Origin: a virus
IMG/VR virus record: IMGVR_UViG_3300045988_098052
Direction: 5' to 3' (one strand)
Length of the DNA: 13,139 nt
The position numbers were made by a program, and so were the translations under genes. The notes under the pieces are model-generated. The model did not search any database. It was given only the letters and a program-made list of their open reading frames with translations, and was not told where the DNA came from. Positions 1 to 13,139 of this stretch are shown in pieces. Position 1 is the first letter of the stretch. Each line of letters starts with the position of its first letter.

Positions 1-50
1 AAACTTGGCAAGACTAACCTGTGAACAAATTGTTAACATTTCCCCAATCT

Positions 51-1447: not shown

Positions 1448-3571
1448 ATGATAGTAGCAGGATATCCGGTTATTTATTTCAAAAATTATGATTATATGCG
1501 ACTATTCAATGGTGATTTTATCCGGAGATCCAGCTCAGGTCATTATCTTGGGGTTTATGAAAAAATCATAACTATAGACACAGAGACATTTGTTTATATG
1601 AACAAAGATATTGGGTTTGTTACTGACTGGACAATCACCATAGAGGATGACTGTTGTATCTATGGCAACCATGTTTCAGATCTGATTAACACGATTGATA
1701 GGATCTGTACAACTCTTCATAGTGATGATAGTCATCTTGTACGGTTTTATGTGCATAATTTCCCTTATGACTATGTTTTTCTTAGAAACCATTTTTTTCA
1801 AAAATGGGGATATCCGGATAAATCCTTAGCTGCTAAAACTCACAAATATATATTTATGAAATGGACAGGCCAAGGCATTGAGTTCCGTGATAGTCTTATT
1901 CTCACACAGCGGTCATTAGAGAAGCTATGTAAAGACATGGGAACAACTGAAAAAGCAGTTGGAACATGGGACTATAAGAAGTTTAGAACACCAGCAAGTC
2001 CACGTACATCAAAAGAAATAGCATATGTCTGTACAGATACCATTAGTCTATGCAAGGCGTTACGCAAATACATTGATCAGCGAGGATTCAATGTGGCTAA
2101 CTGCCCATTGACAAATACGGGTTTTATTCGTACCAATGCCCGCAGGAGGTCAAGAAAAGATAAGAAATGGAGAAAGCAATTTGAGAATATGGCTCTGACG
2201 TTGGAGCAATACGATCAAATGCTTGACTGCTATCATGGGGGATATACGCATGCAAATAGGTATTATGTCAATCAGCTGATAAAAGAACCTGTTGAGTGCT
2301 ATGATTTTGCAAGCTCATACATTGCATGGATGTGCTATTGTAAATTTCCAATGAGTAACTTTTGTTATACTAATAATATAACATTAAAAGACATAATGGA
2401 ACTCAAAGAAGAGTATGCTTTTTCAGGATACATCAGATTAAAAAATCTGAGATTGAAAAAAGACTGTCCTATGCCGCCATTAGCTTTTTCAAAAGCGAAA
2501 GTATGTGTTTTTCCGGAAGCAAAAAGCAAAAAAGAACAGTTCCACGATAATCTGGATAATGGAAAGATCGTCAATGCTGATCTTGTCATATATCCCTTTA
2601 CGGATCCGGATTTAGAAGTAATCTTGTCAAGTTATGATTATGACTGGGCTGATGTCTCAAAAGTCATGAGAGCAACAAAAGATTACTTGCCGGAGTGGTT
2701 TACCGGATATTTGATGGAATTGTTTTTTAAAAAATGCACCCTTAAAGGCTTGGATGAAGCAAACTACATGATTTCAAAAGGGGAGCTGAATGGTATGTAT
2801 GGCATGACTGTACAGAGAATCATTCAGATCTTATGCACAGAGCTTATGGAATCCGGAGAATGGGAAGCAAAAGAACCTGAGGACAGGGAAAAGGAACTTG
2901 AAAAGTTCTATCGGAATAAAAATAGCTTCATGCCCTACCAGTGGGGAGTATGGATAACAGCATATGCACAAGCATATCTTTTCCGGTTGGGCGCCTGCTG
3001 CCGTAGGTGGTTATATTCTGACACTGATTCAGTAAAGGGAACAGACTGGGATCATGATAAACTGGATGAGTTTAACAAGTCTATCATCAATATGTCACAA
3101 AAAAGAAACATCGGAGTAGTTGAGTATAATTCTAAAACATTCCGACTGGGTATTGCTGAATTTGATGGGATATACAGTGAATTCATCACTATGGGAAGCA
3201 AGCGTTATTGCTACAGACTGAAAAAAGATGCATCCTTGCATCTGACAGTTGCAGGTGTACCAAAAGAGGGTATTTACTGTTTGGATGATAATATAACCAA
3301 TTTTAGAAAAGGTTTCATTTTCAAAAATGATTTGACATTTCGTAGGAATTACAGAAGATTGAATGATTGGCAGGATCCAAAATGGAAGATGAAAACGGAA
3401 TATATTTTTCATGAAGGAATCAATGAAGTGACTGTTGACGGATGCAGGATTGAATATGGTTGTGCCATCCGCTTGAGCGATACAGAATACGAGCTTGATC
3501 ACGCAATCCCATATGACAAGGAAACAGGCTTGCCGTTACCATTTGAGATTGAAGATACCGTATACGGATAA
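1448..3571 (+). CDS. Family-B protein-primed DNA polymerase (pPolB), 707 aa.
   Basis: Exonuclease motifs: ExoI IDTET (D44/E46), ExoII HNFPYD (N104/D108) and ExoIII YVCTD (Y193/D197). Polymerase motifs: pre-A CYHGGYT, motif A YDFASSY (D286, Y291), motif B KGELNGMYG (K444), motif C YSDTDS (D525/D527) and KxY as SKRY (K585). The motif order matches the phi29 polymerase. Confidence 0.93.
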   Translation: MIVAGYPVIYFKNYDYMRLFNGDFIRRSSSGHYLGVYEKIITIDTETFVYMNKDIGFVTDWTITIEDDCCIYGNHVSDLINTIDRICTTLHSDDSHLVRFYVHNFPYDYVFLRNHFFQKWGYPDKSLAAKTHKYIFMKWTGQGIEFRDSLILTQRSLEKLCKDMGTTEKAVGTWDYKKFRTPASPRTSKEIAYVCTDTISLCKALRKYIDQRGFNVANCPLTNTGFIRTNARRRSRKDKKWRKQFENMALTLEQYDQMLDCYHGGYTHANRYYVNQLIKEPVECYDFASSYIAWMCYCKFPMSNFCYTNNITLKDIMELKEEYAFSGYIRLKNLRLKKDCPMPPLAFSKAKVCVFPEAKSKKEQFHDNLDNGKIVNADLVIYPFTDPDLEVILSSYDYDWADVSKVMRATKDYLPEWFTGYLMELFFKKCTLKGLDEANYMISKGELNGMYGMTVQRIIQILCTELMESGEWEAKEPEDREKELEKFYRNKNSFMPYQWGVWITAYAQAYLFRLGACCRRWLYSDTDSVKGTDWDHDKLDEFNKSIINMSQKRNIGVVEYNSKTFRLGIAEFDGIYSEFITMGSKRYCYRLKKDASLHLTVAGVPKEGIYCLDDNITNFRKGFIFKNDLTFRRNYRRLNDWQDPKWKMKTEYIFHEGINEVTVDGCRIEYGCAIRLSDTEYELDHAIPYDKETGLPLPFEIEDTVYG

Positions 3572-3594
3572 ATTGTTATAAAATTGTAATAGTT

Positions 3595-3622
3595 TTGTAA
3601 CATAAATAAGTTAAAATATAAT
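3595..3622 (+). promoter_or_regulatory. Candidate internal promoter, TTGTAA-16 nt-TATAAT.
   Basis: TTGTAA at 3595-3600 and TATAAT at 3617-3622 lie in the only sizeable intergenic gap after the polymerase. They are preceded by TTGTWA boxes with 11-bp phasing at 3573, 3584 and 3595. Confidence 0.45.
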
Positions 3623-3636
3623 CAGGAGGTGTAACT

Positions 3637-3750
3637 ATGAAAAAATTTTGGAGAGAAAACAAAGATGACATTGAAACGTTTTTTTGGACGTGCATCACTT
3701 TTGCCCTCATGTTTGCAAGCTGTCAAGTGTTGTTACTGATGGGCGATTAA
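3637..3750 (+). CDS. Small 37-aa membrane protein (MKKFWRENKDDIETFFWTCITFALMFASCQVLLLMGD).
   Basis: AGGAGG at 3624-3629 lies 7 nt upstream of the ATG. The protein has one hydrophobic span of about 20 residues. It is below the ORF-track length cutoff, so I translated it by hand. Confidence 0.5.
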   Translation: MKKFWRENKDDIETFFWTCITFALMFASCQVLLLMGD

Positions 3751-3772
3751 ATAAGTAAAGGAGGTGAGGAAA

Positions 3773-3910
3773 TTGATTGATATGTCAGAGATTTATGAAA
3801 CTATGAAAACAAGCACCCTGCGAAAAGTAACCTATGAGGATGATGAGATCAGTATAGTAGCTTACAAAGTAGGAAAAATTATTAGAATTGATGTAAAGGA
3901 GACAAAATAA
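3773..3910 (+). CDS. Hypothetical 45-aa protein with a TTG start at 3773. An alternative ATG at 3782 would give 42 aa.
   Basis: AAGGAGGTGAGG at 3758-3769 lies just upstream. The ORF fills the gap exactly up to the next gene's RBS. I translated it by hand. Confidence 0.45.
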   Translation: MIDMSEIYETMKTSTLRKVTYEDDEISIVAYKVGKIIRIDVKETK

Positions 3911-3911
3911 G

Positions 3912-4211
3912 ATGTTAAAATCAAACGTAAAAATCACTTGTAAACCATACAATGGAAGTATATCAACAAAAGCTTTTATTGACCTTGAACTGGATAATAC
4001 CCTTGTAATTAAAGGACTTACGTTGGTTGAGGGGAACGATGGTCTTTTCCTCTCATTCCCAAGTAAAAAGGGAAAAAATGGAAAATATTACAAAAGAGTT
4101 TACTCTCTGGACAAAGAATGGAAGCAATTATTACAGGATGCTTGCGTCAAAAAATACAATGAGTGCAGAAAGACTGCACAGCCTGCATCCTCCGGGGGTG
4201 GATTTCGGTAA
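3912..4211 (+). CDS. spoVG: SpoVG-fold nucleic-acid-binding protein homologue, 99 aa.
   Basis: The stretch KAFIDLELDNTLVIKGLTLVEGNDGLFLSFPSKKGKNGKYY...LLQDACVKKY aligns by eye with B. subtilis SpoVG [38 protein letters not shown]...IQDAVLNEY. AAGGAG serves as RBS. Confidence 0.75.
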   Translation: MLKSNVKITCKPYNGSISTKAFIDLELDNTLVIKGLTLVEGNDGLFLSFPSKKGKNGKYYKRVYSLDKEWKQLLQDACVKKYNECRKTAQPASSGGGFR

Positions 4212-5257
4212 TGAATATCTATGATAGAAATGGTTGGCTGGACGTTCCAAGGATCGTCCAGCTTGCTGATAAAAATAAAATTAACTTCATATTCATAATT
4301 GGAGCCAGAAGAACTGGAAAAACATATGGTATTTTCCAGCACTTCATTAATAACGTTTTTTCACAAAATGAGAAGATCATATACATGCGCCGGACAAAAG
4401 AGCAGCTGACAAAAGTCTTTCTTCCGGAATTTGATCCATGGATTGACATAAACAAGGACATGAATAGGTTTTTTCATTTTGAGAAACCCAGAGGTGAATA
4501 TGGTCGTATTAAGATCGTAGAGCAGGTTAAAGATGAAGAAATTTATAGAGGTGAAGCATTTTGCCTTACGTCAATGCATAACAACCGTGGTTTCTCTGGA
4601 TCTGATTTTTCAGAAGGGATTTATGATGAATTTATTCCGGAGAAGATCGCAAAAGCAATAACTGGGGAAGATGATGCTTTTCTGAATGCTGTTGAAACCA
4701 TCTCAGCAAACAGGGAATTGCAAGGAAAGAAACCGTTCCGCTGGTGGCTTGCTTCCAACTCAAATACGCTGGATAATCCAATTGTGCAGGCTTTCGGTTT
4801 ACTTCCAATCTTGGAACGAATGAAAAAGAATAAGCAGGAATTTTCCATGCTGAAAGAACGAGGGATAATATTGGTTCTGATTAATGACTCACCGATATCG
4901 GAAAAGAAAAAAGATACAGCTTTGTATCGTGCATTATCAGGTGATACGGACTTTGAAAAAATGGCATTATCGAATGAATTTGCATATGATGACGTTTCTG
5001 CAATACGATCAGAAGATATCCGACAATATAGACTTATTTGTGTGATCGGAAAAGTTGCAATTTATGAGCATAAATCAAAAGCTCATTTGTATGTCTCAGA
5101 TCATATATCTGGTTCATGCAAAGATGTATTTGAGGACACACAGCATGGTAAAGACCAATTCAGATGCTTTTATAGTTGGATCGACAGCTATCGTCTGACA
5201 AATAGGATAAGCTATCAGAATATTTCTGTAAAATTCTATATTGACAAATTATTTTAA
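4211..5257 (+). CDS. phi29 gp16-like DNA encapsidation (packaging) ATPase, 348 aa from ATG 4211.
   Basis: INFIFIIGARRTGKTYG matches phi29 gp16 LNFVIGARGIGKSY (Walker A). IIYMRRTKEQL matches FIYVRRYKPEL, and GIYDEFIPE matches IVFDEFIRE (Walker B). I prefer the start at 4211, which gives a TAATG overlap with the upstream stop, over the ORF-track start at 4163, which would overlap the SpoVG-like gene by 49 nt. Confidence 0.9.
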   Translation: MNIYDRNGWLDVPRIVQLADKNKINFIFIIGARRTGKTYGIFQHFINNVFSQNEKIIYMRRTKEQLTKVFLPEFDPWIDINKDMNRFFHFEKPRGEYGRIKIVEQVKDEEIYRGEAFCLTSMHNNRGFSGSDFSEGIYDEFIPEKIAKAITGEDDAFLNAVETISANRELQGKKPFRWWLASNSNTLDNPIVQAFGLLPILERMKKNKQEFSMLKERGIILVLINDSPISEKKKDTALYRALSGDTDFEKMALSNEFAYDDVSAIRSEDIRQYRLICVIGKVAIYEHKSKAHLYVSDHISGSCKDVFEDTQHGKDQFRCFYSWIDSYRLTNRISYQNISVKFYIDKLF

Positions 5258-5269
5258 CAATCATATATT
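5241..5269 (+). promoter_or_regulatory. Candidate late or ncRNA promoter, TTGACA-17 nt-TATATT.
   Basis: TTGACA at 5241-5246 lies inside the last codons of the ATPase gene and TATATT lies at 5264-5269. The predicted transcription start near 5276 falls at the foot of the downstream structured element. Confidence 0.5.
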
Positions 5270-5273
5270 AGAG

Positions 5274-5354
5274 ATAGGTCAACGTGGCTACATCGACCGC
5301 CGGAAGCGGATGCCATGGGGTGATAACCCGGAAGCGTTGACCTATTTTAATTTT
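5274..5354 (+). ncRNA. GC-rich branched RNA structure followed by a U-tract. It could be a small ncRNA, a leader attenuator or a complex terminator.
   Basis: An 11-bp perfect closing stem pairs ATAGGTCAACG (5274-5284) with CGTTGACCTAT (5335-5345). It encloses 50 nt holding two small hairpins, CCGC/GCGG at 5297-5309 and GGG/CCC at 5318-5329. TTTTAATTTT follows. The region is non-coding and is the most GC-rich intergenic stretch in an AT-rich genome. Confidence 0.55.
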
Positions 5355-5380
5355 AACTTCCGGCAGAAAAGGAGATAAAA

Positions 5381-5746
5381 ATGAAAGTAGAGGAAATTTT
5401 GGAACTCGGAAAACTTGGATTCTCAAAAAATGAGATTATGGGAATTATGAATGCACAGAATATGTCCGGACTTGGACAGGTCACAACTCCGGGACAGTAT
5501 GCAACTCCGGGACAGTATGCAACTCCGGGACAGGTTACACCGGGACAGGTCACAATTCCGGGACAGGTTACACCGGGACAGGCCACAACTCCGGGACAGG
5601 ATGCAACAAATGCAGCTCTTCTGACAGCAATCAATACATTGACTGCTACGTTACAGGCTGGTAACCTTTCTGCATCCGGAAAAGCTGGATCAGCACCACG
5701 AACATCTGAGAACGTGGCAGAGGATCTCATGAAAATTATGAATTAA
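5381..5746 (+). CDS. Candidate scaffolding protein, 121 aa, with an internal (T)PGQ repeat array.
   Basis: GGAG serves as RBS. The gene lies directly upstream of the capsid gene, as phi29 gp7 does, and is of similar small size with helical N- and C-terminal segments. The call rests on position. Confidence 0.45.
   Translation: MKVEEILELGKLGFSKNEIMGIMNAQNMSGLGQVTTPGQYATPGQYATPGQVTPGQVTIPGQVTPGQATTPGQDATNAALLTAINTLTATLQAGNLSASGKAGSAPRTSENVAEDLMKIMN
5468..5606 (+). repeat. Imperfect tandem DNA repeats of CCGGGACAG plus 6-9 variable nt, 7 copies plus one degenerate copy, encoding GQ/PGQ repeats.
   Basis: Direct reading gives the protein stretch GLGQVTTPGQYATPGQYATPGQVTPGQVTIPGQVTPGQATTPGQDA. Two units are an identical 18-mer, ACTCCGGGACAGTATGCA. 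Confidence 0.9.
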
Positions 5747-5761
5747 GGAGGTAGAAAAATA

Positions 5762-6958
5762 ATGGCAAACACTTTAGTGGTTCAGGATGCCTATTTGATT
5801 ATCAATGACTTATACAAGATGGCCACCGGTCGGGAGAACATTAAGGCAGTTGATACAAGCTCCTTTGTAGCTGTTGGTGAAACCATGCTACGTACAGGTG
5901 TAGAACCAACGTTAAAAGCCCTCAGCCAGTGGTGTGGTCGTACCTATTTTGAAATGGAAAAATACAGATCAGGAGTATTCCGCTCCATCATTGAGGATAA
6001 TGAGAGATGGGGTGCTATCACACGTGAGATTATTTCTCTGCCATTGGATGCAGAAGCATCACAGGATTGGAATACAGACTTGAATGAAAACCAGCTTGCT
6101 GATGGACAGTCTGTGGATATGTACAAGATTAATAAGCCAAAAGTGGTTGAGTTAAAATTCTACGGAAGCAAGGTACTTCAGTCACATATCACACGATTCC
6201 GGGATCAGCTGGCACTTGCTTTTTCCAACGAAGCAGAGTTTCTTATGTTTGTAACCTCATACATGACAGCTTATTATAATGACATCGAGAGCCGAAACGA
6301 AGCAAAGCGCAGAATGACGGTGCTTAACTTTATGGCGGGGGTTTCTTCCCTTGGCACAAATGAGGTTGATCTTGTAAATGAATACAATACAGCATATGGT
6401 ACAGAGCTTACAAGAAAACAGCTTTTAAGCCCGGAACATCACAGAGATTTCATGGCTTTTGTTGTTGCAAGAATCAAGAAAGACTCAAAAAAAATGCAGG
6501 ACAGAACAGCAAAGTATCATATGAATCTTACCGGAAAAGATATCTTACGTTTCACAAGACCGGAGAACCAGAAGTTGCTTATGTACACAGATTTCTGGAT
6601 TGACAGCGAAACACAGGTATTCCCGACAGTATTTAATGATGAGCAGCTTAGAATTGCTGATAAAGAACTGGTAAATGGCTGGCAGGAGTTCGACAGCCCA
6701 GCTATTAACATCACTCCAAACATTATTGATGTAAACGGTGTCTCAAAGAAAGCAGAGTCAGCTGTAAATATTCCTTATGTTCTCGGTCTTTTATATGATC
6801 GTAGAGCAATGGGTGTGAATAATCAGTGGATGTATTCTGCATCAACACCGTTTAACGCAGCAGGAGGCTACTACAATATCTATGATCATTACCGCTTCAA
6901 TGCTTGGAACAACTTCACACACAATGCAATTCTTTACGTGCTTGGGGAGGGAGTATAA
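5762..6958 (+). CDS. Major capsid protein, 398 aa.
   Basis: It is the largest ORF in the head module and follows the scaffold-like gene with a strong GGAGG RBS. Its size is typical of capsid proteins of small phi29-related podoviruses. I cannot verify a diagnostic motif by eye. Confidence 0.7.
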   Translation: MANTLVVQDAYLIINDLYKMATGRENIKAVDTSSFVAVGETMLRTGVEPTLKALSQWCGRTYFEMEKYRSGVFRSIIEDNERWGAITREIISLPLDAEASQDWNTDLNENQLADGQSVDMYKINKPKVVELKFYGSKVLQSHITRFRDQLALAFSNEAEFLMFVTSYMTAYYNDIESRNEAKRRMTVLNFMAGVSSLGTNEVDLVNEYNTAYGTELTRKQLLSPEHHRDFMAFVVARIKKDSKKMQDRTAKYHMNLTGKDILRFTRPENQKLLMYTDFWIDSETQVFPTVFNDEQLRIADKELVNGWQEFDSPAINITPNIIDVNGVSKKAESAVNIPYVLGLLYDRRAMGVNNQWMYSASTPFNAAGGYYNIYDHYRFNAWNNFTHNAILYVLGEGV

Positions 6959-9525: not shown

Positions 9526-10446
9526 ATGTGGGTACCTATGAATTTTGATAAAATCAACATATGCACAAATTACTTTCAACCATCTGGAATTAAGGCTGAC
9601 AGCTTATATACAGACACCTTTGACCGGATGCTTTATGAACGTGTGTGTTCTATCCTTGATATAAAATACAATGCGAACATTGACATTGACTATTTCAAAT
9701 ATTGCTTACTTTTCGGTGGCTATATCTGCATCACAAAGACAGATCTTTATGGTCTTATTGCACAATACCCAATGTTGACAGGCTATAACATTTATTTTAA
9801 GCCTACGACAGCTACTATACACACGTATGCAAGCAATGCTACGATTGACATTGAGGATATGGAGATCGGAAAAGACTGTTCTGTCATATATCTCAGACCT
9901 ACTTTTTGCGGAATCGGAGATATTATTGGATTCTATAGTTATAAATTGGCACTTGTAGCATCAGCTTTTGACATGAACGTGTTTAACTCCAAACTTGCGT
10001 TTTTGATAGCAGCAAAAAACAAGTCATCAGCTCAGACATTGAAAAAAATCTATGACAGCATCCAGGCAGGTAATCCAGTTGAGGCTTTTGACGTGTCGTT
10101 AAAAACGGAGGACAGACAGGGAAGCAAACAAGATTCCTTTGAAACATTCAACAAAGATTTAAAGCAGAACTTTATAGCACAGGAGCTGATTGAAGTATTT
10201 GAGAAGCTTCTTGATCAGTTTGACACGGAAGTCGGCATTCCGTCCGTAGGATCTGATAAAAAAGAACGACTGAATGTGCTTGAGACAAGCAAAAATGATG
10301 CAGAATCTGTGACACGATTAACAACTTGGCTTGAAACAATGAAGGCAGGAATTGACATGACAAATAAGTTATATCCGGAGATGAATCTGTCAATCAAGAT
10401 CAGAAGTTATGAGACCGCGGAGGTAAAAAGTTATGGGACTATATAG
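9526..10446 (+). CDS. Portal protein (upper collar, connector), 306 aa, phi29 gp10-like.
   Basis: The size matches gp10 at 309 aa. DKKERLNVLETSKNDAESVT resembles gp10 [20 protein letters not shown]. The gene lies between the tail knob and lower-collar genes. AAGGAG serves as RBS. Confidence 0.75.
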   Translation: MWVPMNFDKINICTNYFQPSGIKADSLYTDTFDRMLYERVCSILDIKYNANIDIDYFKYCLLFGGYICITKTDLYGLIAQYPMLTGYNIYFKPTTATIHTYASNATIDIEDMEIGKDCSVIYLRPTFCGIGDIIGFYSYKLALVASAFDMNVFNSKLAFLIAAKNKSSAQTLKKIYDSIQAGNPVEAFDVSLKTEDRQGSKQDSFETFNKDLKQNFIAQELIEVFEKLLDQFDTEVGIPSVGSDKKERLNVLETSKNDAESVTRLTTWLETMKAGIDMTNKLYPEMNLSIKIRSYETAEVKSYGTI

Positions 10447-12391: not shown

Positions 12392-12689
12392 TGAAAGATA
12401 GCCCAGCGTATGCTGGGCTATTGTTTTTTATGCATCTATTAAAAGCTTTCTGAGTAGCTTGACTACTGACCAGTTTGTTTTTTCTACAAAAAATGTTATC
12501 ATAAAAATAGACTTTCCAGTATTTAGATTTAGAGAGCTTAATTCCAACTCTATCATCAAAATTAAGATAAGATGCAAACAAGATATTAAGGTCATCATCA
12601 TATTCACATCTTAACCCTTGATTTTCAAGGTCACATGCAAGCTGACTAAATGTCATGACATTCTTAACATAACACACATTGTATTTCAT
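12381..12689 (-). CDS. Hypothetical right-end early protein, 102 aa.
   Basis: GGAGGG serves as RBS, directly after the stop of the ITR gene copy. It is the second gene of the right-end operon. Its 3' end runs through the terminator hairpin and overlaps the tail-fibre gene by 11 nt. I recognise no motif. Confidence 0.55.
   Translation of the reverse strand: MKYNVCYVKNVMTFSQLACDLENQGLRCEYDDDLNILFASYLNFDDRVGIKLSKSKYWKVYFYDNIFCRKNKLVSSQATQKAFNRCIKNNSPAYAGLSFITL
12398..12429 (+). terminator. Intrinsic terminator of the long + strand operon, possibly bidirectional.
   Basis: A perfect 10-bp stem pairs ATAGCCCAGC with GCTGGGCTAT around the loop GTAT. TGTTTTTT follows, 7 nt after the tail-fibre stop. 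An A-rich tract lies upstream on the other side. Confidence 0.85.
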
Positions 12690-12701
12690 GTTCTCACCCT
12701 C

Positions 12702-12890
12702 CTACAGTTCAATACCGAAGATATCATTAAGACACCATTTTTCAAAATCTGGATCAGCATTGCAATATTCTGTAAGAAACTCTTCTGGTGTACATGATGC
12801 TAATTCAATATGAATATCTTCTCTGATCTCATCATTCATATAGCTTGCGACTTCATCCATGATTTCCATTGTTACTTCATTTGCTTTCAT
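12702..12890 (-). CDS. ITR-encoded 62-aa strongly acidic early protein, right copy.
   Basis: The protein is identical to that of 250-438. The nucleotides are identical except in the last sense codon, CTG here against TTA on the left. Confidence 0.8.
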   Translation of the reverse strand: MKANEVTMEIMDEVASYMNDEIREDIHIELASCTPEEFLTEYCNADPDFEKWCLNDIFGIEL

Positions 12891-13139
12891 ATCTTGTTTC
12901 CTCCTGCCTATCGGCTGTGATTTATTTGTTGATTATATTATAGTCCAATTGGACTAATATGTCAATAGAATGTCAATAGAATAAGTGACAGACTTTGTAT
13001 GATATTGTCAGGCAATTTAATGTTATAGTTGCCTAGCAAGAATCATGCCAATTTTGATGTTATGAACGAAATATGAACGAAATATGAACAGATTGGGGAA
13101 ATGTTAACAATTTGTTCACAGGTTAGTCTTGCCAAGTTT
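12708..13139. repeat. Right inverted terminal repeat, the mirror copy of nt 1-432.
   Basis: Exact reverse complement of nt 1-432. The window ends ...ggttagtcttgccaagttt, which is the reverse complement of aaacttggcaagactaacc at the start. Confidence 0.95.
12937..12965 (-). promoter_or_regulatory. Right-end early promoter, the mirror copy of 175-203 with the same palindrome at 12941-12956.
   Basis: It lies inside the perfect ITR, so its sequence is identical on the minus strand. It drives the 12890..12702 and 12689..12381 ORFs. Confidence 0.75.

Follow-up and report, generated by a model that had tools for sequence, protein, structure and literature searches.

The window analysed here is the whole stretch of 13,139 bp held in the IMG/VR virus record IMGVR_UViG_3300045988_098052, which is the genome of a phi29-type podovirus. 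Between its gene for a Gp16-family encapsidation ATPase (4163-5257; PF05894, E = 8e-17) and its first late gene, encoding a scaffold-like protein with TPGQ repeats (5381-5746), a short segment (5241-5383) carries a promoter, a structured RNA of 72 nt and the translation start signals of the late gene, all on the + strand. An earlier reading of the letters alone, hereafter termed the sequence-only reading, had noticed a promoter-driven, GC-rich and branched RNA at this place and had proposed that it might either resemble the packaging RNA (pRNA) of phage phi29 or act as a late-operon switch. The comparisons reported below provide good support for the view that this element is a member of a large, hitherto undescribed family of structured RNAs of ~70-110 nt that is not in Rfam, and they allow its possible functions to be weighed.

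The promoter is of the sigma-A/sigma-70 type and occupies positions 5241-5269 just as the sequence-only reading had it, with TTGACA (5241-5246) as the -35 box, a 17-nt spacer within which the ATPase stop codon falls (5255-5257) and TATATT (5264-5269) as the -10 box. It fits the consensus at 11 of 12 positions, is among just three sites of the window that reach at least 11/12, and is predicted to start transcription around A5276. Because promoter-like sites are not above chance window-wide (50 found, 45.9 expected), the case for this promoter is instead built on conservation. Both the -35 box and the length of the spacer are constant in 55/55 close relatives (54 IMG/VR contigs and GenBank record MT836115, with ATPases 91-96% identical), and the spacer sequence drifts. 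Among distant relatives, a TTGnnn-16..18-TAnnnT promoter is found upstream of the element in 79 of 92 distinct contexts, the end of its -10 box lying mostly 6-7 nt before the first base of the closing helix described next.

The RNA spans positions 5274-5345, and would measure ~70 nt rather than 72 nt if transcription started at 5276. Its ends form a perfect stem of 11 bp (5274-5284 with 5335-5345), which had been recognised by the sequence-only reading and which U5285-G5334 extends to 12 pairs. This helix, P1, is made of AUAGGUCAACGU (5274-5285) and GCGUUGACCUAU (5334-5345), the latter strand being assigned by folding and covariation. It closes a junction from which two arms emerge. The first arm starts with P2, where GGC (5286-5288) pairs with GCC (5312-5314; placed by covariation and RNAalifold), continues into an 8-nt internal loop located on the 5' side only, UACAUCGA (5289-5296), and ends in the E hairpin (5297-5309), composed of CCGC (5297-5300), the loop CGGAA (5301-5305) and GCGG (5306-5309). 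The second arm is the P3 hairpin (5317-5329), with GGG (5317-5319), the loop GUGAUAA (5320-5326) and CCC (5327-5329). In terms of pRNA, P1 would be the counterpart of the A-helix, P2 of the C-helix, the internal loop of the CE or 'right-hand' loop, and P3 of the D-helix with its D or 'left-hand' loop. The U-rich tract UUUUAAUUUUAA (5345-5356) adjoins the 3' end of P1 and is kept in the window family; it may serve as an intrinsic terminator, though probably just a partial one. Behind it, the segment CUUCCGGC (5357-5364), which we call anti-E, is the complement of GCCGGAAG (5299-5306), that is of the E-stem 5' strand together with the E loop, and stands 4 nt before the Shine-Dalgarno sequence AAGGAG (5369-5374) of the scaffold-like gene, whose ATG begins at 5381 (5369-5383 for both). 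The U-rich tail, the duplicated CCGGAAGCG (5300-5308 and 5328-5336) and the complementary CTTCCGGC (5357-5364) were all read correctly by the sequence-only reading.

The 72-nt element folds with a minimum free energy (MFE) of -30.4 kcal/mol as compared to -20.3 +/- 2.9 for shuffled sequences (z = -3.5), none of 200 shuffles being equally stable, and its G+C content of 53% contrasts with 34-36% in the flanks. The branched, GC-rich insert described by the sequence-only reading is thereby confirmed, except that the inner pairing of the single-sequence MFE fold differs from the pairing supported by covariation and was dropped in favour of the P2 given above. An Rfam search, which had been proposed as a check, gave no family for the element: zero families reached the gathering score in the window, and none matched the element at E <= 10 either within the window scan or with the element alone. 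Matches at E <= 10 elsewhere in the window are far sub-threshold and belong to unrelated families. Rfam scans of the phages phiCPV4 and AD70P3, of the contig MT835998 and of eight other phage records also returned nothing relevant. Neither a tRNA nor a tmRNA was found in the window by ARAGORN, and no tRNA family of Rfam matches it.

Covariation was analysed in the close family, in which the element is present in all 55 members and is represented by 39 distinct sequences. The RNA core is much better conserved than its flanks and its internal changes are compensatory. When the proposed structure is imposed on the distinct sequences, 97% of the cells are paired, as compared to 31-38% in controls with slid partners. 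Double changes affect 3 pairs and 20 cells, and the covariation score was reached by none of 500 shuffles. RNAalifold independently yields an identical three-way junction. Compensatory changes are found in P1 (AC/GU to GA/UC in 8 distinct sequences, in addition to C-G to U-A) and in P2 (G-C to A-U in 4 distinct sequences), and the E stem is paired throughout the family, wobble variants included. Pairs of the G-U type such as U5285-G5334 fit a reading of the + strand only. We conclude from these substitution patterns that the predicted fold is a three-way junction consisting of P1, of an arm carrying P2, the internal loop and the E hairpin, and of a second arm formed by P3.

Two covariance models (CMs) were used, R1 built from the close family alone and a broader second model, R2. 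The window element scores 107 bits with R1. Matches of R1 located directly after the ATPase gene in contigs whose ATPases are 63-83% mutually identical reach 66-77 bits, those at far more distant loci reach 21-49 bits, and R2 matches 37 of 98 further loci with 25-79 bits. The element was detected altogether in more than 150 related contigs as well as in cultured Guelinviridae, and a rule-based parser recognises its architecture in 100 of the 108 regions examined. In relatives with ATPases 63-66% and 34-40% identical, the sequences of P1, P2, the E stem and P3 differ, their pairing is kept and the loops are conserved; E-stem variants of distant relatives covary (CCGU/ACGG, CUGC/GCAG, CCC/GGG and others). 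The most conserved nucleotides of the RNA are those of the E loop, which reads CGGAA in 90 of the 100 parsed elements. Across the family, P1 has 8-15 bp, P2 3-6 bp, P3 3-7 bp, and the internal loop measures 7-8 nt and lies on the 5' side only. About 30 matches obtained when IMG/VR was scanned with a 17-mer core were discarded, as they lie in large unrelated contigs, score at most 19 bits with R1 and are as numerous as a rough chance estimate would give. Covariation and conservation in very distant relatives thus bear out the proposal of the sequence-only reading that the element is no simple terminator but a structured RNA driven by a promoter, whose paired 5' and 3' ends form the helix that closes a junction. 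Of the observations on which that reading wished to see it judged, two, covariation in related loci and presence in related phages, came out in its favour.

Cultured phages are included in this family. The nearest cultured relatives of the window are the Amedibacillus phages AD70P2 and AD70P3, classified as Guelinviridae, and the element is also present in AD70P3, MT836263 and MT835901. The Clostridium perfringens phages phiCPV4 (16180-16292, - strand, upstream of the scaffold-like gene), phiZP2 and CPS2 (~1337-1459) carry a ~110-nt version with the same two arms and an extra 3' hairpin. In this version the closing 5'/3' helix is long and bulged (14 + 7 bp) and the loop pair is GCCA/UGGC; the substitutions between the three phages fall at positions that, read by eye, are paired in the C and A helices, one site becoming a mismatch. 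The records of phiCPV4, phiZP2 and CPS2 have no RNA annotation over the element, and the coding sequence CPS2_5 (1337-1459), which covers it in CPS2, is probably a mis-call. The versions of AD70P3 and phiCPV4 were found by eye and by folding, R2 having missed both; the search of Eggerthella phage LE1-1, Bifidobacterium phage BadAztec1, Enterococcus phage Athos and PZA with R2 gave no match, which leaves absence there unproven. Two further forms were noted. At loci L217 and L218 (~3500-3630) a larger variant has an extra hairpin, resulting in a four-way junction, and the loop pair GUCA/UGAC, and MT837693 carries in the equivalent position (~5590-5740) a differently built structure of ~130 nt.

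The sequence-only reading had seen no complementary loop pair in the element. Such a pair does exist: A5292-U5293-C5294-G5295 of the internal loop is complementary to U5321-G5322-A5323-U5324 of the P3 loop. Throughout the family, the bases at the 3' end of the internal loop are complementary to 4-6 nt of the P3 loop, and the sequences involved vary freely among lineages, giving ~41 distinct complementary loop cores (ACCA/UGGU, AGGG/CCCU, GUGC/GCAC, GGUCA/UGACC, UGUCA/UGACA, GCACA/UGUGC, UGCAC/GUGCA, GAAACA/UGUUUC, UAGCA/UGCUA, GUCCA/UGGAC and GCUAUA/UGUAGC, among others). Since the loop columns are out of register between clades in the CM alignment, the covariation of this pair was assessed with our own parser, which chooses the fold blind to the loops, followed by permutation. 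The longest Watson-Crick match between the loops averages 4.05 bp within a lineage as compared to 2.27 bp across lineages, and none of 5000 permutations attained this value.

The position of the element directly after the gp16-like gene, which the sequence-only reading had taken as support for a role in packaging, is not conserved. The ATPase gene of MT835998 is closed by a plain bidirectional terminator hairpin that faces a convergent gene, and the RNA is found ~8 kb away on the other strand, behind a 62-aa open reading frame (ORF) of the other genome arm and with its own TTGACA-17-TACTAT promoter. It is followed there by a BhlA-like gene, a 69-aa ORF, the scaffold-like gene and the capsid gene. 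The RNA of phiCPV4 is likewise remote from the ATPase gene, with a SpoVG-like gene on one side and the scaffold-like gene on the other. These two arrangements rule out a link of the RNA to the ATPase gene and indicate that the conserved position is the 5' head of the late operon. In most of the distant relatives (L216-L222, L223-L302 and L141, 12704-12856), the first gene after the RNA is not the scaffold gene but one for a holin-type protein resembling BhlA/UviB, which is ~50-90 aa long and has a single transmembrane segment and the motif VGFPIA, so that the RNA heads an operon opening with a lysis-type gene.

Two signals located between the RNA and the first late gene could connect it to late expression. 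The first is the U-rich tract. In the window P1 is followed by UUUUAAUUUU, the resulting 'hairpin' encloses a 48-nt branched insert, and a simple terminator scan does not call the site. At least four U residues follow P1 in only 24 of 92 distinct contexts; termination therefore does not appear to be the conserved function, and the insulating terminator that the sequence-only reading had listed among its alternatives is unlikely to be what the family has preserved. The second signal is anti-E, which is nearly invariant in the close family, where its neighbours vary. An anti-E is present in 15 of 33 E-hairpin types, located 1-8 nt upstream of the Shine-Dalgarno sequence and covarying with the E-stem 5' strand, as in the pairs UCCGGCC/GGCCGGA, UCCGGCU/AGCCGGA, UCCGGGG/CCCCGGA, UUCCGAGU/GCUCGGAA and UCCGUCC/GGACGGA. 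Matches of at least 6 bp between E and anti-E occur in 39% of comparisons within a lineage and in 18% across lineages, the observed mean being reached by none of 5000 permutations. Complementarity between anti-E and the Shine-Dalgarno sequence itself is slight, with 4 bp including one G-U in the window. These figures argue that the E/anti-E pairing is a real second conformer, one that would be open only to read-through or unprocessed transcripts. The late-operon switch put forward by the sequence-only reading is partly supported by the anti-E that covaries beside the Shine-Dalgarno sequence in about half of the lineages. The U-tract is not conserved.

Other lineages suggest that the RNA could be separated from the late mRNA. 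In the lineage of MT836587 (16 contigs from at least 5 samples, including L315-L329), the junction RNA is followed by a functional tRNA-Gln(UUG), the two together covering 5063-5206 of MT836587. A constant linker of 4 nt separates P1 from the tRNA, which stands before the Shine-Dalgarno sequence of the scaffold-like gene, and compensatory substitutions are seen both in the RNA (E stem, P3) and in the tRNA. With a tRNA only 4 nt downstream, processing by RNase P would free the junction RNA from the mRNA with a defined 3' end, and the arrangement of this lineage thus implies, as far as sequence can tell, release as a free RNA. At loci L294-297 the RNA is set apart from the anti-E, the Shine-Dalgarno sequence and the late genes by a canonical terminator hairpin, and both in the window family and in MT835998 P1 leads into a U-tract. 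Different lineages therefore appear to make a discrete small RNA from the same promoter by different routes. A 'tRNA-Pro' called by ARAGORN in MT836263 (9066-9142) was discarded as almost certainly a false positive, as it falls within a GGCCCGGGTCC repeat (GGCCCGGGTCCCGGCCCG coding repeat).

The interpretation that we prefer, although we hold it tentatively and with a confidence that stays just short of even, is that this RNA represents a miniature counterpart of phi29 pRNA, possibly with an added cis coupling through anti-E; this function we infer from the sequence. The phage that encodes the element also has an ATPase of the gp16 type, a connector of the gp10 type and a capsid of the phi29 type, and like pRNA the element has its own strong host-type promoter. 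In phi29 this packaging motor requires pRNA (PMC5066667). The 5' and 3' ends of both RNAs lie in one helix closing a three-way junction, and the order of their parts is the same, namely A 5' strand, C 5' strand, an internal loop confined to the 5' side, an E hairpin of 4 bp, then the C 3' strand, the D hairpin and the A 3' strand. This is the helix and loop order of the phi29 prohead-binding domain, and the structure line of the Rfam pRNA family RF00044 likewise matches the window helix order. In phi29 the 9-nt CE loop is found on the 5' side only and its last bases pair intermolecularly with the D loop (Hill et al., PMC5066667); here too, the 3' bases of the internal loop abut the E helix and are complementary to the D-loop counterpart, with covariation between phages. 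The pRNA-like architecture suggested by the sequence-only reading is in this respect strengthened by the very loop pair that it had overlooked. The most conserved nucleotides lie in the distal hairpin loop, as expected of a protein-binding loop like the phi29 E loop. A 2025 survey based on Infernal accepted new pRNAs on covariation linking the right-hand loop with the left-hand one together with gp10 and gp16 (PMC12670572), and the window RNA shows such loop covariation in a genome with both genes.

If this RNA is a miniature pRNA, it would act free and be reduced to the prohead-binding core. The internal loop of one molecule would pair with the P3 loop of its neighbour, 'hand in hand', to build a ring on the portal vertex of the prohead, in which the conserved CGGAA hairpin may touch a conserved portal or capsid surface and P1 would be directed outward, toward the gp16-type ATPase. 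The free RNA could be generated by termination at the U-tract after P1 in the window family, by the separate terminator hairpin at L294-297, by RNase P cleavage of the tRNA 4 nt downstream in the MT836587 lineage and, in the other lineages, by processing of another, unspecified kind, the late genes being carried on read-through transcripts. On such transcripts, anti-E pairing with the E hairpin might mask the RNA within the mRNA, or might link translation of the first late gene to how the RNA is folded or occupied. In its general form this proposal would make pRNA-dependent packaging common to the Guelinviridae-like branch, including gut and C. perfringens phages, with the window RNA as a natural minimal pRNA of ~70 nt that originates from the head of the late transcript, is released by termination, tRNA-guided RNase P cleavage or other processing and is tied in its folding to the first late gene by anti-E. 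We consider this general form plausible, and rather less than an even bet.

Several observations weigh against a packaging role. With RF00044 nothing is found at E <= 10 in phiCPV4, AD70P3, MT835998 or the window, nor when only the element is searched, although the same model recognises the PZA pRNA used as a positive control with 144.7 bits, and the element has no sequence or CM similarity to pRNA. The pRNA of phi29 has a domain I of ~117 nt and an A-helix that is ~25 bp long and bulged, whereas P1 with its 8-15 bp is variable and has no conserved bulge. A cluster of the RKR type at the N-terminus of the phi29 connector binds pRNA, and the N-terminus of the window connector, which reads MWVPMNFDKINICTNYF (MWVPMNFDKINICTNYFQPSG), has no such basic cluster. 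In phi29 it is the A-helix with its CCA bulge that constitutes the ATPase-binding, packaging-essential part (PMC5066667). The gene also stands at the head of the late operon, whereas that of phi29 pRNA is at the genome end. Moreover, the RNA invariably forms the 5' head of the late mRNA, and a terminator is missing in many lineages, where a free RNA would depend on some putative processing step. The covarying anti-E is the strongest argument for a cis-regulatory component. Finally, as P2 (3-6 bp) and P3 (3-7 bp) are of similar length, an intramolecular loop-loop pseudoknot is sterically conceivable, and the covariation of the loops would fit intra- or intermolecular pairing alike. Since the CM, P1, the connector, the junction strands and the gene position all depart from the features that define pRNA, we do not file the element in RF00044. 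The record of PZA, M11813, in which pRNA stands upstream of gene 7, was taken as an orientation artefact of an old composite record and not used as evidence. RF00044 is found in it at 4883-5000 (145 bits) on the + strand together with the early genes; measured against the standard phi29 map, the left early region seems to have been deposited as its reverse complement, so that the feature tables are misleading.

Best placed among the alternatives, although we regard it as unlikely, is a cis-acting leader or switch of the late operon, in which the junction with an intramolecular loop-loop pseudoknot would bind a phage or host factor and set late-gene expression. With the RNA staying on the mRNA, it would work by termination at P1 and the U-tract, by alternative E/anti-E pairing near the Shine-Dalgarno sequence, or by both. 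Such a leader would explain why the element, whichever gene lies upstream, invariably occupies the 5' head of the late operon, and why anti-E, located 1-8 nt ahead of the Shine-Dalgarno sequence, covaries with the 5' strand of the E stem. The constitutive-looking consensus promoter, with a terminator just behind it in the window family, would be a natural point of temporal control, and the similar heights of P2 and P3 are compatible with an intramolecular kiss. There is, however, no universal expression platform, given the limited occurrence of U-tracts (24/92) and of anti-E (15/33 E-hairpin types), and L219-222, L300-302, phiCPV4 and AD70P3 have neither of the two but have nevertheless retained the junction together with its loop pair and E loop. 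In the MT836587 lineage the tRNA lies between the RNA and the Shine-Dalgarno sequence, where RNase P and RNase Z would cut the leader off. Anti-E is hardly complementary to the Shine-Dalgarno sequence (the 4 bp of the window, one of them G-U) and, being located downstream of the U-tract, cannot act as an antiterminator, and a leader would have no evident use for the long bulged helix of phiCPV4.

A free, trans-acting small RNA serving a purpose other than packaging, for instance as a decoy or sponge for a host protein, in anti-defence, or as an antisense RNA whose CCGGAAG loop would bind the anti-E of late mRNAs, is improbable in our estimation. It could draw on the strong promoter that the RNA possesses and on the pairing of its 5' end within P1, on the plausibility of release by a terminator or a tRNA, and on a conserved exposed loop that is complementary to a site beside the Shine-Dalgarno sequence. 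This loop is nevertheless conserved in lineages that have no anti-E as a target, the covarying loop pair and the close pRNA topology would be left unexplained, and no host factor or target can be identified from sequence. We give still less credit to a processive antitermination RNA like HK022 put or Bacillus EAR, which would bind RNA polymerase and ensure read-through across the 7-10 kb late operon. The obligatory position immediately after the late promoter in every lineage is what such an RNA would require and, its function residing in the fold itself, no expression platform would be needed, in agreement with the lineages devoid of U-tract and anti-E. On the other hand, no Rfam family matches the element at E <= 10, the tRNA located 4 nt downstream would detach the RNA from the polymerase, and in the window family P1, the helix that completes the fold, is itself the terminator-like stem.

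An ordinary terminator insulating the upstream replication and ATPase operon, combined with a 5' stem stabilising the late mRNA and with inner branches devoid of function, appears very improbable. A stem of 12 bp followed by a U-rich tract in the window, and the protection that 5'-terminal helices confer on Firmicutes mRNAs, count in its favour. This explanation is to our mind largely refuted by covariation: the loops and the covarying loop pair are conserved where ATPases are only ~30-40% identical, the U-tract is missing in most lineages, the terminator scan does not call the site, and MT835998 terminates its ATPase gene with a plain hairpin and carries the element elsewhere. Least probable of all is a riboswitch sensing a metabolite or second messenger through its junction and loop-loop contact in order to time the late genes, as the size of ~70 nt, the P1-closed junction, the long-range loop contact and the merging of P1 into a terminator in some lineages are outweighed by variable junction strands (J3/1 being GGAA, AAGAAA, CUGAU, CAAA, AUUAA and others), by invariant nucleotides that occupy a distal hairpin loop, contrary to what a ligand pocket would show, and by the lack of a consistent expression platform and of an Rfam match.

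The remainder of the window is that of a phi29-type genome. It is linear and flanked by perfect inverted terminal repeats of 442 bp (1-442 and 12698-13139), which indicate that it is whole, and it encodes a type-B DNA polymerase of the protein-primed type (1448-3571), a phi29-like major capsid protein (5762-6958; PF25622), a GP10-type connector (9526-10446; PF05352), an NlpC/P60 tail protein and a GDSL hydrolase. The nearest GenBank record is the unannotated human-gut contig MT836115 (84% identity), and the ATPase cluster of the window at 95% identity represents 1466 sequences in public assemblies, pointing to an abundant gut phage type. Each terminal repeat contains an inward-pointing promoter with a 12/12 consensus fit (175-203 and its mirror 12965-12937), a duplicated 62-aa ORF (250-438 and 12890-12702) and, at 51-79 of the left copy, short direct repeats GTTCATATTTCGTTCATA. 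Within the scaffold-like gene, six tandem imperfect copies of an 18- or 33-nt unit encoding TPGQ(Y/V)(A/T) at 5468-5625 raise the local G+C to 51-54%; the scaffold-like proteins of relatives are also of low complexity (PAAPAAP in MT835998, KEEEQKK in AD70P3). A strong bidirectional terminator hairpin at 12397-12422 (GATAGCCCAGCGTATGCTGGGCTATT followed by a T-run) separates the end of the rightward late operon (12391) from the leftward right-end genes and is the sole clean canonical terminator of the genome.

Two other places of the window that might have held a classical pRNA were considered and rejected. The 340-nt gap at 3572-3911 is occupied by two small ORFs with good ribosome-binding sites, one for a hydrophobic protein of 37 aa (3637-3750) and one of 48 aa (3764-3910), and has a promoter-like site at 3595-3622. 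ORFs of this size fall below a minimum of 50 or 60 aa, and that of our ORF listing was 50 aa. The leader of the terminal repeat leaves only ~40 nt between the promoter at 175-203 and the first ORF. With the 3572-3911 gap filled by small ORFs, no sizeable non-coding stretch is left in the genome besides the RNA element.

According to the reference list of PMC11476376, pRNA was first described in 1987, and it has since been held unique to phi29 and its Bacillus relatives, in a 2016 review (PMC5066667), in a 2024 review (PMC11476376) and in the 2025 Infernal survey (PMC12670572). The 2025 survey, the 2024 review and a paper on C. perfringens phages (PMC3362512) report pRNAs only in phages of the Bacillus type. 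A covariation-supported RNA with the topology and the loop-pair logic of pRNA is now found in a second, much larger phi29-type branch. The long-standing question why only phi29-type Bacillus phages use an RNA in their DNA-packaging motor thus becomes directly testable, cultured systems being available with phiCPV4, CPS2 and the CPQ phages of C. perfringens and with AD70P2 and AD70P3 of Amedibacillus. If the miniature pRNA is confirmed, it would be a natural 70-nt minimal version showing which parts of the A-helix are dispensable, and it would offer new three-way-junction and kissing-loop modules to the RNA nanotechnology based on phi29 pRNA. Should the RNA instead be a cis leader, it would represent a new and widespread class of phage RNA that controls late genes and, unusually, carries two sets of covarying long-range pairings. 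Under either reading the family merits an entry in RNA family databases, and it overlaps mis-called GenBank ORFs such as CPS2_5. It is in any case well supported by conservation and covariation that we are dealing with a genuine, conserved, structured non-coding RNA. It stands at the start of the structural-gene operon in a large group of small phages of the gut and of clostridia, in which no RNA of such kind was previously known.

Several known systems can be compared with this RNA. The lambda PR'-6S RNA-tR' arrangement, governed by Q antitermination, similarly has a strong constitutive promoter before the late genes, a short terminated transcript and late genes that need read-through, a likeness that holds for the window family, MT835998 and L294-297. 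However, lambda 6S RNA is not known to have a conserved tertiary fold or function of its own, whereas here it is the fold that is conserved and not the terminator, most lineages lacking a U-tract. The purine riboswitch with its L2-L3 kiss and the tetrahydrofolate (THF) riboswitch with its pseudoknot between a loop and an internal loop are also ~70-nt RNAs in which a P1-closed junction bears arms of similar height joined by Watson-Crick loop contacts. They differ from the present RNA in that the latter has no conserved junction pocket, carries its invariant bases distally, matches nothing in Rfam, occurs in the context of a phage late operon and has a loop contact that may be intra- or intermolecular. 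HK022 put and Bacillus EAR are likewise structured RNAs placed right after a promoter, and the present RNA could, as they do, act without a separate expression platform; put consists of two stem-loops, no sequence or model similarity links either of them to the element, and one of our lineages has a tRNA between the element and the genes.

The comparison with phi29 pRNA reaches furthest, albeit with differences. The junction strands are of 0-1, 0-2 and 4-6 nt here and of 1, 3 and 0 nt in phi29, domain II is missing here although phiCPV4 has an extra 3' hairpin, and our RNA is often continuous with the late mRNA, many lineages having an anti-E. Full pRNAs measure 117-174 nt as compared to 72 nt for the window RNA, which in turn is nearly identical in length to the 71-nt prohead-binding core of pRNA that was crystallised (bases 25-95; PMC5066667). 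The phiCPV4-type version, at ~110 nt and with its bulged helix of 14 + 7 bp, comes closer to phi29 pRNA in size.

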